Source: Promethearchaeota archaeon (GTDB taxonomy: Archaea > Asgardarchaeota > Hermodarchaeia > Hermodarchaeales > Hermodarchaeaceae). From it: DNA of 32,000 bases. The position numbers were made by a program, and so were the translations under genes. Below are positions 9,639-31,922 of the stretch, piece after piece. Location of the stretch: contig JBHLMI010000025.1 of assembly GCA_048938295.1 (NCBI GenBank), positions 11,083 to 43,082 of the forward strand. The letters are read 5' to 3'. Position 1 is the first letter of the stretch. Each line of letters begins with the position of its first letter. The notes under the pieces were generated by a model. That model was not told the DNA's origin, ran no database searches, and saw only the letters and a program-made list of their open reading frames with translations.

Positions 9639-11588
9639 TTATTGCATTAGATGTTTCTTGAAGAAAGCCACAATCGCCCGATACGCCTTCATCAAGTTCT
9701 CCACCTTCGTGAAGCCGTGGCCTTCATTCTCAAACACAAGGTATTCAACTTCGACTCCCTGTTTACGGAGTTGCTTAGCGACATCAGCGGATTCTGCTTC
9801 GACAACCCGGGGGTCATTACGTCCTTGAATGATTAGCATTGGCGCTTTGACGTTGCTGAAGTGGGTTGCAGGTGATCGCTCGGTTAGAAATTCTTTGTCG
9901 GTGTCTGGGTGTCCTACAGCATGATAGAACCAAGTTCGCCAAGTTTCAGGTAAACGCTCAATGAAAGTAAAGAGGTTATACGGTCCAAACATATCACAGG
10001 ACGCTTTCCAATATTCTGAATAGTTTGCAGACAGCCATAGAGTCATATAGCCACCATAACTACGACCCACGACAGCTCGACGGCTCGAATCAATACGTTG
10101 ATCCTTCTCAAGGAACTTCAATCCTTCGATATGATCCTTTGCGTCACCGCCTCCCCAATCCCGGTCAACAAGTTTCATGTAAGATTGTCCGTATCCTGTA
10201 CTACCACGGACGTTGGGCACAAATACTGCAAATCCATTTAATGTGAAATACTGAATAAGGGGCATGGAAAACCATGTGTAATCTGGGCGCTCTTGACTTT
10301 GGGGACCTCCATGGACATAGAGAATCAATGGATACGGTTTCTTGTATCCCAGTTCCTTGGAGGGCAGGTATAATCGTGCTGAAATCTGTAAGCCATCGAA
10401 ACTTTTGAAACTGGCATCTTCTCCAGGGGCGAGATAGTTTTGGTCAATACCAAGAATACGTTCATTCGAAAGTCGTTTAACCCACTCAGTTTTTGAAGAA
10501 GGGGTTATGAGAAAAATCTGGGAAGGGGATGTGGCCGTTGTAAATGTAGCAACATACTCTACTGCAGGACTTTCCTTTTCGTCAGATATTGCTTCATCAA
10601 TGCCTAAATCAACACCACCATCCAATGGTGGCTTCCCGATGAGAACTTCTTTAAGGTGGAATTGCGGCGCCGTAGGTGTTTCATCTAATTCGGCTTGATA
10701 TACCCAGCTGCAACCATCAATGTTGAATCCAATTATGTACCGGCTGCCTTGGATTTGTCTCATCCAATCCAGTTGGCCCAAGCCTTTATGCTGTATCCCA
10801 GTGACTTTCACCGGATGAACCTTCTTAGGATCTGACAAATCGAGGAATCCAATACCACCTTTATCATCGTGAAGAGTCGTCTTGAAGATGAGTGCTAAAT
10901 CGTCTCGGATAAAATAACAGCGCCCTAATCCTAGCAGTGGATACTCCTTTCCCTTCTCTCGATCCTCTATGGGAGTTCCGAGTAAAAGGGATCGTTGTTT
11001 GTCACCCTTCTTGAAGATATATAATACATCGTCATTTGCCGTGTAGGTGTCTCCGAGGAGGACTTGGTCGTGATTCTGATTATAGCCCACGCAATAGTTC
11101 CCATAAATGCTTGTTCCTAATGATGTGATATCCAGAGTCTCAAGATCCACCTTGATTGTTTCCATGTCAGGGGTTTTTCGATCATCAATTGTAAAATAAA
11201 CCGTGGCTGTTCTCCTATCAAATTCAATGAGCATTAATTGTTGCCCTGCATATCGATCACCGAATATGGGTTTAGGAACCCCTCCAGAAAGCGGGATGAA
11301 ACAAGGCTGATAGTTTTCATCACCATCTTTATCCACCATGACTAAAATTTTCTTGAGTGATGGGATTACCCGGTAATTGTAACCAGCCATTAGGTGGGGA
11401 TTTTGAAGGGCTAAACCCCGTGGAAGGAGTGGTTCCGGGATACTACCCTGCTTATCCATAACGAACAGGCTATACAATCCACTCATATCGCTGATGAAAT
11501 AGATTCTCCCATCAACGAGCTGAGGGGACAATATCCGGCGCGCCGATAGTAGTGATTCGAGAGGAAAGGATTTGCTTTTATCCGCCAT
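9639..11588 (-). CDS. S9 family peptidase (beta-propeller plus alpha/beta hydrolase)
   Basis: Motifs VHGGPQS, NVRGSTGYG, nucleophile GRSYGG, acid GRNDPRV, base EGHGF. GAGGT precedes ATG 11588. Confidence 0.92.
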   Translation of the reverse strand: MADKSKSFPLESLLSARRILSPQLVDGRIYFISDMSGLYSLFVMDKQGSIPEPLLPRGLALQNPHLMAGYNYRVIPSLKKILVMVDKDGDENYQPCFIPLSGGVPKPIFGDRYAGQQLMLIEFDRRTATVYFTIDDRKTPDMETIKVDLETLDITSLGTSIYGNYCVGYNQNHDQVLLGDTYTANDDVLYIFKKGDKQRSLLLGTPIEDREKGKEYPLLGLGRCYFIRDDLALIFKTTLHDDKGGIGFLDLSDPKKVHPVKVTGIQHKGLGQLDWMRQIQGSRYIIGFNIDGCSWVYQAELDETPTAPQFHLKEVLIGKPPLDGGVDLGIDEAISDEKESPAVEYVATFTTATSPSQIFLITPSSKTEWVKRLSNERILGIDQNYLAPGEDASFKSFDGLQISARLYLPSKELGYKKPYPLILYVHGGPQSQERPDYTWFSMPLIQYFTLNGFAVFVPNVRGSTGYGQSYMKLVDRDWGGGDAKDHIEGLKFLEKDQRIDSSRRAVVGRSYGGYMTLWLSANYSEYWKASCDMFGPYNLFTFIERLPETWRTWFYHAVGHPDTDKEFLTERSPATHFSNVKAPMLIIQGRNDPRVVEAESADVAKQLRKQGVEVEYLVFENEGHGFTKVENLMKAYRAIVAFFKKHLMQ

Positions 11589-14238: not shown

Positions 14239-15195
14239 ATGGGAATCAATTCAAGTGTATATGACACTGTAGTTGTTGGCGGTGGTCCTGCAGGAATCGC
14301 CGCCGCAATGCATTTGGGGTTTCATCAGCGGAGAGTCTTAATCATCGACCGAAAGACAACACCGATGCAATTTGCGAATACTCCAATCCATAATTATCCT
14401 GGTGTGAAACCCCTCGTTGCCCCCACAAAAATCCTTCAAAAGATGAGGAGAGAATTACGTGAGTATAACGTTGAAACCTTTTTTGGTAATGTGATCGGCA
14501 TCACGGGGCAGACGCCAAATTTTCTTATTGACGTCAAATCTGCCCAAGAGACGCTTACAACGGTCACCGCGAAAACCTTGGTCTTGGCAACGGGGATTGC
14601 TCGCAAACATCCTAAGGTCGACGGTGATTGGAAAAAGTGGCTTCCGTTTGCGGGAAAAAATCACACGAGCTATTACTGTCCAGATTGTGATAGTCCACAA
14701 GCTACCGGGAAAGACGTCATCATCGTCAATGCTGGGACAGCCAATAGCGCACTGCACGTGGCTCGGTGCATCAAACCCTTTGCAACGCGCATTCGAATTT
14801 TCATGACCGAAGATGCCTACGCCCCTTACACCAAGGACTCTGAAACAATTCTGAATAAGTCGGGTTTCGAATGGACCCATGGACTCATTAAAGAAATTAA
14901 CATACTAGAACCTGGAAAACGACAGCAGCTTATCACCGCTGATGATCGAACCCTTGAATGCAATATCTTCTTCGTTGCATGGGTTGCTGTTCCACGGAGT
15001 GAGCTTGCGAAACGAATGGGTGTTGATGTGGATACGCAAGGTAATATCATCACTGATCACAAGGGAACTACAAATATCAAAGGGGTCTGGGCTGCAGGAG
15101 ACATCCTACCTATCACCCAAACAGTTGCTACCGCAGTTGGGACAGGTGTATATGCTGGAATCATGATTGCCCACTACTTGTTATCATTTGATTGA
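14239..15195 (+). CDS. Thioredoxin-reductase-like flavoprotein with CxxC and atypical pyridine-nucleotide motifs
   Basis: FAD motifs VVGGGPAG and TNIKGVWAAGD; redox centre CPDC at 14677. The NADPH motifs are replaced by NAGTANSA and MTED. Confidence 0.85.
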   Translation: MGINSSVYDTVVVGGGPAGIAAAMHLGFHQRRVLIIDRKTTPMQFANTPIHNYPGVKPLVAPTKILQKMRRELREYNVETFFGNVIGITGQTPNFLIDVKSAQETLTTVTAKTLVLATGIARKHPKVDGDWKKWLPFAGKNHTSYYCPDCDSPQATGKDVIIVNAGTANSALHVARCIKPFATRIRIFMTEDAYAPYTKDSETILNKSGFEWTHGLIKEINILEPGKRQQLITADDRTLECNIFFVAWVAVPRSELAKRMGVDVDTQGNIITDHKGTTNIKGVWAAGDILPITQTVATAVGTGVYAGIMIAHYLLSFD

Positions 15196-26734: not shown

Positions 26735-27032
26735 ACTGACCAGCCTTGCCCCTATCGCTACTAGCCGAAATCAACTGATATAAGCTCTCTCTTTTTACAG
26801 GGTTCAAATTAGGTTATTGCAAAGGCTCATTGTTCTTGGGTGTTTTCTTCTCGTACAGATGGTATTACCACCTCTTTTAGGCAAGAAAGAAGAAAAGGAT
26901 AGAAATACAATTATCATTTTGAGGGAAGCCAATCTGGATCCAAAGGTTTGCCCACTATTCCAGCGACGCCTTTCAATGAAAAAAGCCACATGGTAACCCT
27001 TGAAATGAAACGGACTGGGCGAGGATATCAAA

Positions 27033-27518
27033 ATGAAGTTAGGCGAGGTAGCTCGACACGTTATTTTATTTCTAAGCGAACATTCTGACCAGGAATTTAC
27101 CGCTAACACTCTCCTGATGTACCTAGGCTTGCCGCTCCAAGAAAAACGACGGCTTTATGATGTCATTGAGGTTCTCAGTTGTGCCGGGCTTGTTTCTATT
27201 CGAAAAGAGGCCCGAAAACGGTACTTTAACTGGACGCCACAACCGTCCATGACGACCACAGACACGATGGACATGGATATGGCACCTGATCCTCTATTTC
27301 AAGAGGCTGGAACAATTCTGCACCTTCTACTGCACTTAAGTCCTGGTGCATTCCAGGAACTCAGCAATGACTCCGCAGTTAAAATGCTTGAGCGAGATGT
27401 TAAACGAACCATCTGGGGTGCGAATGCGGTCAGTGTTGTGAAAGTATCACTCCAAGATAAGGTTGGTCGGATTTTAAAAGAGACCTCAACTGGAGAGGCG
27501 CACGTAGCAGCACATTAG
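27033..27518 (+). CDS. E2F/DP-like winged-helix DNA-binding protein
   Basis: KLGEVARHVILFL...EKRRLYDVIEVLSCAGLVSIRKEARKRYFNW aligns by eye to the E2F/DP consensus SLG.L...F...L...RR.YD..NVL...GL+.K......W. Confidence 0.7.
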   Translation: MKLGEVARHVILFLSEHSDQEFTANTLLMYLGLPLQEKRRLYDVIEVLSCAGLVSIRKEARKRYFNWTPQPSMTTTDTMDMDMAPDPLFQEAGTILHLLLHLSPGAFQELSNDSAVKMLERDVKRTIWGANAVSVVKVSLQDKVGRILKETSTGEAHVAAH

Positions 27519-27585: not shown

Positions 27586-27990
27586 CTAGCTATCCTTGGC
27601 AAGATCCTTCTTGACGGCTTCATAAAAACTGACTTCATCCTCGCCACGGCGTTTCACAGTAATCTTGGGTTCAACGCCTTCTAATTTTCGTTGCACCAAT
27701 ATCACACCAGTTTTCGGAATGCGATTAATCAGCTGCCCACGGAGGTATAAGGCAATTGCCAGATCTTCAATCCGTTCAGCTAATGCTGCTTTAGTTAGTT
27801 TCAACTCCTTAAGGTAGACGACTGCATCAGGAAGAAAGAGCGCTTCTATGATTTTTTCCCGTTCGGTCTCTCGTTGCTTTATCCGTTCCTCGGTTTCGAG
27901 TCTTAGGGCCTGCTGTCGCACTTGCTCCTCCCGTAGCGCCTGCATTTTGCGTTCTCGTATACGTTTGAGATCATCAGCATCTTGGGACAT
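27586..27990 (-). CDS. PDCD5/TFAR19-like archaeal dsDNA-binding protein
   Basis: DLKRIRERKMQAL..., REKIIEALFLPDA..YL..LKL.K..LAERIE...I.L...GQL...I. Start moved to ATG 27990. Confidence 0.75.
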   Translation of the reverse strand: MSQDADDLKRIRERKMQALREEQVRQQALRLETEERIKQRETEREKIIEALFLPDAVVYLKELKLTKAALAERIEDLAIALYLRGQLINRIPKTGVILVQRKLEGVEPKITVKRRGEDEVSFYEAVKKDLAKDS

Positions 27991-28094
27991 TGAAGCCACC
28001 CTACGACGAAAGTGTGGCACCAGTCCAGTACTTTTATAGGTTTCGGGTTTTCTGGATAACGTCCCAGTGAAGTATTCTCAAAAAGGTATGACCT

Positions 28095-29345: not shown

Positions 29346-29795
29346 ATGGAGGAAACTCCCAAAATGTCTAAAGAAACAGAATCTGCTGAGACCGTCGAGA
29401 CTGAAGAAGCTAAAGCGAAAGAACCTTCAGCTGAAGAAGAAAAGGGCAAAAAGGCTGCAAAGAAAAAAGAAGCCAAACCTGAAGCAAAGACAGAAGCAAA
29501 GGCGGAGGCTCCCAAGTCACGCCGCGACGAGAGTGTCGTCTTCGTTGGCAGCAAACCGCTGATGAGCTACATCACTGCTTGTGTCACCCAGCTCAACCGA
29601 AATCCCGAGGAACTCGTGATCAAGGCCCGGGGGCGGGCTATCAGTCGCGCTGTAGACGTGGCTGAAGTGCTCCGAAACCGTTTCATGCCTGATCTCATGG
29701 TGCGTCAAATCGATATTTCTACTGAACAAGTCAAGACAGCCGAAGGCAACGTAGCGAACGTCTCAGCGATGGAGATAACGCTGGCTCGTAAATAA
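29346..29795 (+). CDS. albA: DNA/RNA-binding protein Alba with an N-terminal low-complexity extension
   Basis: Core VFVGSKPLMSY...LVIKARGRAISRAVDVAEVLRNRF...VSAMEITL, preceded by ~61 aa rich in E/K/A. Confidence 0.92.
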   Translation: MEETPKMSKETESAETVETEEAKAKEPSAEEEKGKKAAKKKEAKPEAKTEAKAEAPKSRRDESVVFVGSKPLMSYITACVTQLNRNPEELVIKARGRAISRAVDVAEVLRNRFMPDLMVRQIDISTEQVKTAEGNVANVSAMEITLARK

Positions 29796-30011: not shown

Positions 30012-30374
30012 ATGGAACCTCGTATGGGAAAACTTGTGCCAACCGTCCAGCTTTTATCAATTGGTGATGCCAAAGTGGAATTGACCTTCTCATCAGAACC
30101 GAAGATGCCAGAGTTTGGCCGACAAATTGTTGCTTCAGAGTTGACGGTGTGGGCAGCAGGCTCTGCAGCAAATTTCGCACTCTGTGGGGCAGCACTCGGT
30201 GTAAAAACTGGATTCGCTGTTAGTATGTTATCCGGGGCGACGATGGAACATACTGCAGTTTCTGCCAATGCGGTAGCCGCTCTGCATGTGTCCCGACGTC
30301 TGCTAGAATCCTTGTTCCCCAGTTTAGAAGTAACATCTGCCTTCCTGATGCGCCATCGTCCGCTAGAGGCATGA
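30012..30374 (+). pseudogene. PfkB/ribokinase-family kinase with an in-frame internal deletion (N- and C-terminal ends fused)
   Basis: The N-terminal motifs LSIGDA.V and AGSAANFA...AALG..TGF are joined directly to the C-terminal GF...LSG...E.TAVSANAVAALHVSR...FPSLE. The catalytic GAGD motif is absent and the product is only 120 aa. Confidence 0.65.
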
Positions 30375-31922
30375 AAAGACGCGTCGTCCACCCACATATG
30401 TAGCTAACACCTTCACGGTCTTCAGCTCATGAGGAGCTATTTCAAACGGATTCGCTGAAAGCACCACAAAATCCGCTAGTTTCCCTGGCGCTAAGGATCC
30501 TTTTTTCTTCTCATCAAAACTCGCATAAGCTGCATCGATAGTATAGAGACGAATTGCTTCTTCGATACTGATTTGAGTTGCAGGATTTGGGTGTGTTGCT
30601 GCTGAATAGATGCCGTATAACGGGTCCATGGGCATACAATCGGATCCAAAGGCAACTTTGATTCCAACATCGAGGCTGCGTCGGAAATTATTCAGTTGTG
30701 CTGCCCGTTCTGGTCCAAGGCGTACCTCATACATACCATCAGGAAGCCCCCAACGGTGAACGAAATTTGGTTGCTGTAGTAGGAGCATATCCAACTTCTT
30801 GACCCGTTTAATGAGGAGAGGAGTGAGAAACTCAGCATGAATTATGTTATGACGCAACTTCTTCACAAAATCGGAACAACTCGCTTTTTCATGAACGCGA
30901 ATCACAAGCTCAATGGCCCGATCCCCTATTGCATGGGTACTTACCTGTAGACCCAGTTCATTTGCTGTAACAATTAGGAACCGATAATTCTGTTCGTCAA
31001 AAAGCATCAACCCATTGCTTTCAGGTTTATCAAGATAAGGTTGGGAAATCGCAGCGGTTTGAGCTCCAAAGGATCCATCAATAAAGACTTTCACTCCTCC
31101 TAATCGTAGATAATCATCTCCAAGACCAGTTGGTAGTCCAAATGCTGCGAGTAAATCAAACAGCTTGGCTTCGAGATTCACATAAATTCGCACTGTCAGT
31201 TGATCTTTTTGCCGGAGTTTTAGGTACTCGTTGAGGTAGGGAAGCTGTAGCTTGTATAGATTCTCATGTACTGAGGTGATACCTACACTATTGGCATATC
31301 GGCAGCCTTCCTGGAGTGCTTTCGCCAAGTCTTCATCATTAGATTGGAAATTACGAGTATCAATAGGAATATCACGAAGGATCCCCGTGAGTTCCCCACT
31401 TTTTGCATCGCGGTCGATTCCAGGATCATTAGAATCCAACACCAACTGCTTAAGGGTCTCTGAGTTTACACTAATCAGATGACCACATACGCGAATCAAA
31501 ATCACTGGATTCTTCGGTGCAATGGGGTCAAGGTCGTTCTTGGTGATGTATCGGGGCGTTTCCCACTGACTTTCATCCCAATTATACCCGCGAATCAATT
31601 TGCCCTCTGGGGATTTGTTTACCCGTTCTTGGACTAATTGGAGTGCTTCTTCTATCGAGGCAGTATTCCCAAGGTCGAGATGGAGCATTTTTTGACCTAA
31701 ACTCGCAAGATGTGCATGGGTGTCAATAAATCCTGGCAAGATTGTCCGACCATCCATGTCAAGAGTTTCCGTTGCATAGGTCTGAAATACTGCAACTTCC
31801 GCATTGGAGCCTATCGCAATGATATGTTCGTTGCTAATTACCATCGCTTCTGCCTGTGGAATCTGTGAATCCATGGTTCGAATATTTGCATTCAGAATAA
31901 CGAGGTCAACGTGGAAAGGCAT
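30363..31922 (-). CDS. Metal-dependent amidohydrolase (YtcJ-like, Amidohydro_3)
   Basis: Motifs PGFIDTHAH, GHLISVNS, GGVKVFIDGSFGAQTA, THAIGDRA, IIHAE, FGSDC, GSLAPGKLADFVVL. Confidence 0.92.
   Translation of the reverse strand: MPFHVDLVILNANIRTMDSQIPQAEAMVISNEHIIAIGSNAEVAVFQTYATETLDMDGRTILPGFIDTHAHLASLGQKMLHLDLGNTASIEEALQLVQERVNKSPEGKLIRGYNWDESQWETPRYITKNDLDPIAPKNPVILIRVCGHLISVNSETLKQLVLDSNDPGIDRDAKSGELTGILRDIPIDTRNFQSNDEDLAKALQEGCRYANSVGITSVHENLYKLQLPYLNEYLKLRQKDQLTVRIYVNLEAKLFDLLAAFGLPTGLGDDYLRLGGVKVFIDGSFGAQTAAISQPYLDKPESNGLMLFDEQNYRFLIVTANELGLQVSTHAIGDRAIELVIRVHEKASCSDFVKKLRHNIIHAEFLTPLLIKRVKKLDMLLLQQPNFVHRWGLPDGMYEVRLGPERAAQLNNFRRSLDVGIKVAFGSDCMPMDPLYGIYSAATHPNPATQISIEEAIRLYTIDAAYASFDEKKKGSLAPGKLADFVVLSANPFEIAPHELKTVKVLATYVGGRRVFSCL

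Follow-up and report, generated by a model that had tools for sequence, protein, structure and literature searches.

Does the small protein encoded at this locus belong to the E2F/DP family of transcription factors, and, if it does, in what form and at which sites would it bind DNA? The question is raised by a gene of a Hermodarchaeial genome (Promethearchaeota archaeon, assembly GCA_048938295.1), which lies in the 32,000-nucleotide stretch at positions 11,083 to 43,082 of contig JBHLMI010000025.1, hereafter termed the window. An original prediction, made from the letters of the window, read the product of this gene as an archaeal protein with an E2F/DP-type DNA-binding domain, and the translation that it quoted is reproduced exactly. 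The coordinates of the gene, termed the E2F-like gene below, and of its features are given in Table 1.

E2F_TDP winged-helix domain

Judged from its sequence, the N-terminal part of the protein (residues 3-67) is an E2F_TDP-family winged helix, and its RRxYD recognition motif is invariant. In hmmscan, the PF02319 (E2F_TDP) profile, aligned from position 5 to position 63 of its 65, matches the protein with 31.7 bits (E=1.3e-7), where the gathering cut-off is 25.7. The runner-up Pfam family is TrmB (PF01978), with 14.6 bits (E=0.03), below its cut-off of 25.6, and a scan of the protein against NCBIfam returns nothing relevant. One E2F_TDP domain is present per chain, and the tandem layout of E2F7 and E2F8 is not found in this protein. 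In 27 aligned sequences, K38, R39, R40, Y42, D43, V44, V47 and L48 are invariant, as are M1, K2 and L3, although these sequences include three 152-residue Odin-like relatives with 23-24% identity. When the family profile is aligned with the PDB, RRxYD falls on RRIYD and RRLYD of E2F8 and E2F4. The role of this motif in contacting DNA bases is described by Morgunova et al. (2015; PMC4686757). The landmarks on which the original prediction was based are all found, namely K38-R39-R40-L41-Y42-D43, GL(V) and W67; the Asn of NVL is indeed replaced by Glu (VIEVL), and RRLYD is exact in E2F8, for which the alignment with 4YO2 shows IRRLYDIANVL. The conjunction of these landmarks with the profile match is well beyond chance.

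The family profile gives E2F8 (4YO2) and E2F4 (1CF7) as its best two matches in the PDB. Searched against 1.84 billion representative proteins, it gives nine matches at E≤1e-3, all of which are E2F_TDP proteins (eight scanned here and one by its precomputed match). The distant relatives P0035-37 also match PF02319, and P0035 and P0038, used as queries to reach still more distant relatives, retrieve only themselves. A search of 5.8 billion proteins returns 33 homologs with 51-94% identity, almost all of ~160 residues; their named sources are Asgard metagenome-assembled genomes (MAGs), and every one of them has a precomputed PF02319 match. AlphaFold2 (AF2) models the N-terminal domain with confidence as a winged helix of three helices (3-16, 24-31 and 35-50) and a beta hairpin (strands 54-59 and 62-67), with predicted local distance difference test (pLDDT) values of 78-93 for these blocks. 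The best fold matches of the whole model are Hop2 (Z 11.5, root-mean-square deviation 1.8, 70 residues aligned), Z-alpha, PerR/Fur and ArsR/HlyU.

Relation to known E2F/DP proteins

Reports of E2F/DP homologs in Asgard archaea date from 2021-2023. Eme et al. (2023, Nature 618:992, PMC10307638, Suppl. 4.1.5) describe Asgard E2F/DP proteins "spanning most groups", in which the DNA-binding domain and the base-contact residues are conserved, homology is confined to that domain and the dimerisation and regulator-binding domains are absent, and they map the cluster to arCOG02749. Their sequence table contains KRRLYDVIEVL 17 times and KRRVYDVIEVL three times under 'E2F/DP PF02319', and the entries of their eukaryotic signature protein (ESP) table include the Hermodarchaeia FT1_005 JAEOUH010000063, which corresponds to locus L002 of this study (94% identical), and WORB2_22320. 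A 2024 review repeats the Asgard E2F/DP homologs. The original prediction noted that E2F/DP proteins are generally treated as eukaryote-specific; its premise of novelty fails, because both the family and the Hermodarchaeial ortholog group are already published by Eme et al. (2023). PF02319 is matched in 88 of the 201 genomes sampled from the phylum, usually once per genome, and in 16 of the 18 genomes of the window's own family; none of 14 control genomes contains a match.

The protein studied here belongs to the same family as the published Asgard homologs, with conserved base-contact residues and no similarity to eukaryotic E2F/DP outside the DNA-binding domain. Eme et al. (2023) leave the tails undescribed and name no target sites, whereas here the tail is a conserved domain of three families with predicted homodimerisation, and conserved candidate sites are found at orc1/oriC and at the ftsZ operon that is headed by a ribbon-helix-helix (RHH) gene. 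Asgard E2F/DP proteins are in print, and the literature remarks just on the eukaryotic partner domains that they lack; what is new here is the Hermod/Odin-type architecture with a predicted dimerisation domain of its own, together with the hypotheses of targets at orc1/oriC and RHH-ftsZ and of cross-regulation with an RHH protein.

The protein shares with eukaryotic E2F/DP (1CF7, 4YO2) the winged helix, RRxYD in helix 3, xVLxxxGL after it and the terminal Trp, and two domains would probably lie side by side on a GC core, with helices 1 and 3 in the predicted interface. It differs from them by the Glu in place of the Asn of NVL and by its single domain in each chain, encoded by a single gene in the genome; in eukaryotes, the pair of domains comes from an E2F-DP heterodimer or from the tandem E2F7/8 arrangement. 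Fold searches, moreover, place E2F no higher than other winged helices, and Pfam scans detect no coiled-coil/marked-box, DP, transactivation or pocket-protein-binding region in the protein.

Tandem E2F_TDP pairs with the E2F7/8 layout are found in proteins of 195-228 residues (P0039-P0043; L047:8001-8621 and L048:6425-7045). L047 (41 kb) and L048 (73 kb) are metagenome contigs. As far as examined for P0043, they are densely coded, mostly with ORFan genes, and carry Kelch and DAGAT genes; these contigs look like giant-virus or protist DNA.

C-terminal domain and predicted homodimer

The original prediction also named a T/D/M linker and a tail of ~75 residues, and both are present, the linker at residues 68-84 and the tail after it. 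In the AF2 model, pLDDT is below 50 at residues 72-86. On the evidence of alignments and profile searches, the tail (residues 85-161) is a conserved domain that occurs only in the Hermod-like family and in two others, which include Odin-labelled MAGs. It is conserved as strongly as the winged helix, with M118, R121, D122, K124, R125 and L140 invariant. A hidden Markov model (HMM) of this domain matches solely E2F-like proteins of three Asgard families, namely the window's own, f20 and the small-genome family f2, and one of the three distant relatives comes from an Odinarchaeia-labelled MAG. Modelled alone, the domain has a mean pLDDT of 79 and comprises two helices and a beta hairpin besides an extended segment at its N-terminus.

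No known domain is recognized in this tail. The marked box (PF16421) and DP (PF08781) families give no match at E up to 10, either with the whole protein or with 24 C-terminal domains. Pfam gives no consistent match to these 24 domains, two members having a single unrelated weak match each, and the profile of the domain has no significant sequence match in the PDB. Fold searches give weak generic matches, with a best Z of 2.9 among 48,161 PDB representatives and TM≤0.40 in the ESM Atlas. Other Asgard E2F-like proteins share the E2F_TDP N-terminus, a size of ~120-200 residues and mostly single-copy genes with the protein studied here, and differ from it in the tail. Their tails (24 examples from several families) consist of a heptad-rich helix and a conserved beta-rich end with the pattern ...LxIRxxSxxGFKxVxxSGxEVIIETxxPG.... 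At the profile level the two kinds of tail are unrelated, with an hhalign probability of 0.1%; the HMM of the tail studied here has no match on those 24 examples.

A homodimer is expected, because the chain contains one domain and the genome one gene. The window's genome (2.52 Mb in 66 contigs, 91.6% complete) contains a single PF02319 match, the E2F-like gene itself; the search for a second paralog, proposed in the original prediction, returns none, and a pair of E2F and DP paralogs is not found in this genome. The homodimer prediction, made with a 27-row alignment, scores 0.49, as compared with 0.00 for the best of three controls. Among proteins of solved structure, a score of 0.49 is attained by 20 of 30 one-chain pairs and by 1 of 23 single chains, and these counts hold just roughly for the present case, because our own alignment was used. 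Three runs have at least 67% of the contacts in common, and the pLDDT of the partner is at least 68. With its residues 88-107 and 119-145, the C-terminal domain supplies the core of the predicted interface, and the lowest-error contacts are at residues 94-106 and 131-139. The symmetric contacts are those of residues 94-102 with the same segment of the twin chain (100:96, 102:94 and 98:98) and those of residues 131-139 with residues 94-102. Residues 2-11 of helix 1 and residues 43-53 at the end of helix 3 also belong to the interface. These results give moderate support to a symmetric homodimer that is held together mainly by the C-terminal domain. The homodimer suggested in the original prediction fits both the single gene copy and a dimer prediction that passes its controls, a model being no proof of it.

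Candidate target sites at ftsZ and orc1/cdc6

According to Morgunova et al. (2015, PMC4686757), GGCGCC is the site of E2F homodimers, E2F/DP pairs recognize GCGCGC or TTGGCGGGAA, and the A/T flanks are read through the minor groove. The flanked palindrome TTGGCGCCAA is present in six copies in the window's genome, three of which lie outside our own open reading frame map, a crude one that also underlies the genome-wide enrichment figures for E2F-type words. The number of copies per genome is 1-10. One copy (C7:12435) is located ~250 nucleotides upstream of a gene for a 60-residue RHH_1 protein directly before ftsZ. At -437 to -450 from the ATG of ftsZ, TTGGCGCCAA is invariant in all 13 genomes of the genus in which the ftsZ locus was found, and in one of them (G079) this copy is the sole one. 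It stands isolated in variable sequence, the columns on either side falling to 30-70% identity. In three genomes, insertions of tens to more than 100 nucleotides part it from a divergent tRNA-like gene, and not from RHH-ftsZ. This tRNA-like gene (L050:2254-2370, minus strand; conserved in L078-L090) ends with CCA and has an apparent intron and a long arm; it is missed by ARAGORN and gives a weak match to the Rfam tRNA clan (E=6e-7, below the gathering score).

Another copy (C47:70995) is located 148 nucleotides upstream of the Orc1/Cdc6 gene. The word [C/G]GCGCCAAWTGTGAAC is found ~150 nucleotides upstream of orc1/cdc6 in 14 of 14 genomes of the genus, one of which reads exactly TTTCGCGCCAAA, and a sister genus has GCGCGC at the corresponding position. 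The spacer before orc1/cdc6 (G000:C47:70600-71142, equivalent to L049:1100-1643), which is conserved in 14 genomes, contains classical origin recognition box (ORB) elements, TTCCAGTGGAAA...GGGGGG, together with AT-rich stretches and the words GTTAACA and GTTCACA in repeated copies. This spacer is very likely the replication origin, because classical ORB boxes are present in its sequence. In family f20, whose E2F-like protein has the same C-terminal domain, the orc1 promoter contains TTTTTGGCGCG or TTATTGGCGCG plus TCTGGCGCCTAG in all three genomes. Two genomes of family f6 have a half-flanked GGCGCC at orc1. Of five genomes that have no E2F-like gene, four are AT-rich and have no site, and the fifth is GC-rich and has several cores in an upstream region of 57% GC.

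Two further flanked GGCGCC words, at C1:7451 between an ArsR-like gene and bacA and at C41:49894 between convergent genes, are not taken as targets.

Putative link to an RHH regulator

The spacer of 298 nucleotides 5' of the E2F-like gene can be aligned over 15 loci, and GTAWTACCA is invariant in all of them. The palindrome GGTAWTACC at this place fits the published 9-bp aCcr1-box of the RHH regulator of Sulfolobales, AGTAATACN with alternatives, a box that has been called similar to the CdrS motif (PMC9976878). The same palindrome recurs in the RHH-ftsZ promoter as three to four invariant copies, and the invariant words of that promoter read GGTAATACT, GGTAATACC and GATAATACT. The RHH_1 gene of that operon is of CopG type and lies directly before ftsZ (G000:C7:12687-14205, equivalent to L050:2688-4206), as cdrS lies before ftsZ2 in Euryarchaeota. 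The likeness to aCcr1 is one of motif, its box being matched here at both the E2F-like and the RHH-ftsZ promoters, and the likeness to CdrS is one of gene order. aCcr1 and CdrS differ in protein class from the E2F-like protein, and the comparison bears just on its possible regulation. The E2F-like gene may be under RHH control, because its own promoter carries a box of the aCcr1/CdrS type.

GGTAWTACC is also found twice upstream of a gene for a Xer-type tyrosine recombinase (G000:C32:32894 and 33095; L137) and once abutting the start of a gene for a Ras-family small GTPase (G000:C47:7055; L139). By their sequence, these boxes may belong to one RHH-type regulon with the E2F-like and ftsZ promoters.

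Proposed circuit and alternative explanations

The results can be combined as follows. The gene encodes the sole E2F/DP-family transcription factor of a Hermodarchaeota (Asgard) archaeon. The C-terminal domains would hold a homodimer, in which residues 94-102 run antiparallel to those of the twin chain and helices 1 and 3 of the winged helices touch. The dimer would read palindromes in which a core of GGCGCC or GCGCGC lies between A/T flanks, the type of site reported for E2F homodimers, and its putative targets would be the division operon of an RHH (CdrS/aCcr1-like) gene and ftsZ and the orc1/cdc6 promoter inside the origin. The aCcr1/CdrS-type box in the promoter of the E2F-like gene would allow its control by the RHH regulator. 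We give an even chance to this combined explanation. The full circuit, in which this factor acts directly on the palindromes at orc1/cdc6-oriC and RHH-ftsZ, is wired to the RHH regulator and represents a state before the E2F/DP duplication, is more tentative, and we consider it possible and rather doubtful.

It is improbable that the gene encodes an ordinary archaeal regulator of the winged-helix TrmB/MarR/ArsR class, in which RRxYD and the Pfam match reflect convergence or chance and no specific kinship with E2F/DP. Such a regulator would account for the fold searches, in which only generic winged helices are matched (Z 9-11.5) and E2F is absent from the top 50 rows of the Foldseek search of the PDB and of a second look with VIA, and it agrees with the weak TrmB match, with one Asgard relative that comes near the TrmB cut-off (25.2 against 25.6 bits) and with a domain of merely ~65 residues. 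The E2F assignment rests on sequence profiles and not on fold, because the fold searches give generic winged helices only in the rows listed. The original prediction had named ordinary winged helices as best matches, with no E2F_TDP match, as the outcome that would speak against it; this came about for the fold and not for the profile, and the other outcomes it named, a poorly conserved RRxYD and a chimeric contig, were not found. However, E2F_TDP is the best Pfam match and lies above the cut-off in every member tested, while the 14 control genomes are free of it. The family profile retrieves E2F8 and E2F4 first from the PDB and solely E2F_TDP proteins from the representative set, and the motif, the spacing and the terminal Trp are all retained. 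Eukaryotic contamination or a chimeric contig is far less probable still and is excluded for practical purposes by the sequence data, because synteny around the E2F-like gene is maintained in 12-15 independent Hermodarchaeota MAGs. The even GC content of the window (0.42-0.48), the conservation of the promoter and leader of the gene and its presence in 16 of 18 genomes of the family argue in the same direction, and the view of the original prediction that the flanking genes are native archaeal genes is borne out.

The main alternative accepts a true Asgard protein of E2F/DP type and assigns the GGCGCC sites to another factor (Orc1, RHH, TrmB or Lrp) or to the architecture of the origin; the real role of the E2F-like protein need then not concern the cell cycle. 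We regard this alternative as a serious possibility, short of probable. Besides the fold searches, several observations weigh against the combined explanation, and some of them favour this alternative. The orc1 site lies within a conserved block of ~40 nucleotides that has inverted repeats of its own (GTTnACA/TGTGAAC) beside the ORB boxes, and it may instead serve the origin itself or be bound by another protein. No SGCGCS core is found within 600 nucleotides of orc1 in the Odin-like family f2 or within 500-600 nucleotides of it in the E2F-bearing families f13, f15 and f18. TTTSSCGC, SGCGCS, GGCGCC and WWSGCGCSWW are not enriched in non-coding DNA genome-wide (9-16% of their copies, against a non-coding share of 13% of the genome), and the regulon would therefore be very small. 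Both key sites were found by scanning for a word that was picked after the E2F literature, so that the link to the cell cycle is partly post hoc. GGTAWTACC is rejected as a strongly enriched operator, since 8 of its 21 genome copies are non-coding, against 0-30% for control palindromes, which is a mild bias. Neither GGCGCC nor TTTSSCGC is present upstream of the E2F-like gene (the window contains one TTTSSCGC, at 14650, against 3.8 expected), and self-regulation through an E2F site is unsupported because of this absence. The winged-helix part of the predicted interface may be an echo of the solved E2F-DP and E2F8 structures. These points are countered by the conserved core, which is exactly of the E2F-homodimer and E2F/DP site type, by the invariance of the base-contact motif in the protein, by the rarity of a word that is nevertheless always upstream of RHH-ftsZ, and by the second family with the same protein architecture, which also has E2F-type sites at orc1.

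If the full circuit holds, the link between E2F and the replication initiator, a hallmark of eukaryotic G1/S, would exist here in a simple homodimeric form before the E2F/DP duplication. If the sites are bound by the E2F-like protein, E2F control of replication and division genes would be older than eukaryotes, and archaeal RHH cell-cycle regulators would be linked to a eukaryote-type factor. If the sites are not bound by it, the Asgard proteins would have only the DNA-binding fold in common with E2F.

Putative promoter, leader and translation start of the E2F-like gene

The positions of the putative promoter and leader elements are given in Table 1. From the position of the TATA-like box, a leader of ~130 nucleotides is predicted. 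RNAalifold on 11 loci predicts a long-range helix of 13 pairs in this leader, seven of which show compensatory changes. When the helix is drawn by eye, 83.5% of the cells are paired, as compared with 74.7% in shuffles and 35-63% when the strands are slid. The minimum free energy fold of the window sequence holds this helix, with an energy no better than that of shuffles (z=0.2). CCUUG in the 3' strand would have an alternative 5-bp partner in the CGAGG of the ribosome-binding site, where 94% of the cells pair and the distant loci show a single compensatory change; this alternative pairing would form a weak helix and is speculative. A scan of the upstream region with Rfam gives nothing near the gathering scores.

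The block immediately 5' of the ATG, GGACTGGGCGAGGATATC, is identical in 12 loci, the proteins of which are 68-94% identical, and occurs once in the genome. It is rejected as coding sequence and lies outside the open reading frame, because an in-frame TGA is located 8 codons upstream in the window and is followed by no ATG, GTG or TTG. A mini-frame (M-D-W-A-R-I-S-x-stop) at 27009-27036, and at the same place in L003-L013, overlaps this block. It is opened by ATG or TTG in 10 of 12 loci, while the window and L002 have ACG at the start position, and its TGA overlaps the main ATG as ATGA. It may be a mini-frame for translational coupling, or a by-product of the invariant ribosome-binding block.

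Table 1. Coordinates of the E2F-like gene, its protein domains and its upstream elements in the window
Feature	Position	Strand	Basis or remark
GGTAWTACC palindrome GGTATTACC, candidate operator	26861..26869	.	fits aCcr1-box; a few nucleotides 5' of the TATA-like box
T-rich TATA-like box, reading TCTTTTAGG in the window and mostly CTTTTTAAC in relatives	26873..26881	+	conserved in 15 loci; putative promoter role
5' strand of leader helix, UAUCAUUUUGAGG	26912..26924	+	RNAalifold, 11 loci
3' strand of leader helix, CCUUGAAAUGAAA	26998..27010	+	RNAalifold, 11 loci
Invariant 18-nucleotide block GGACTGGGCGAGGATATC with Shine-Dalgarno-like GAGGA	27012..27029	+	immediately 5' of ATG
E2F/DP-like gene, 161-residue product	27033..27518, stop codon included	+	open reading frame list, translation
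E2F_TDP winged-helix DNA-binding domain, residues 3-67	27039..27233	+	Pfam PF02319, AF2 model, profile against PDB
R39-R40-L41-Y42-D43 codons, RRxYD base-contact motif in recognition helix	27147..27161	+	invariance in 27 aligned proteins
Variable T/D/M/P-rich linker, residues 68-84	27234..27284	+	least conserved in alignments
Lineage-specific C-terminal domain, residues 85-161, predicted homodimerisation module	27285..27515	+	conservation, HMM, dimer model

Neighbouring genes

A scan of a genome collection returns 15 loci, mostly labelled Hermodarchaeota. The conserved gene order is BshC-like, transglutaminase-like (minus strand), E2F-like (plus strand), PDCD5-like dsDNA_bind (minus strand), M28 peptidase (plus strand) and Alba (plus strand). 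The gene for the PDCD5-like dsDNA-binding protein (27586-28020, minus strand) always adjoins the E2F-like gene, and the Alba gene (29346-29795, plus strand) lies near it and encodes a product with a long K/E-rich N-terminal tail. The linkage of the PDCD5-like, Alba and E2F-like genes is conserved, and no evidence of a functional tie between them was seen. Between Alba and an amidohydrolase gene (30363-31922, minus strand) lies a PfkB-family sugar-kinase gene (30012-30374, plus strand) with an in-frame internal deletion. Its 120-residue product corresponds to residues 28-96 and 303-355 of the 356-residue ortholog in L002, and the junction is located at a repeated GFA motif; the deletion may be either real or due to assembly collapse.

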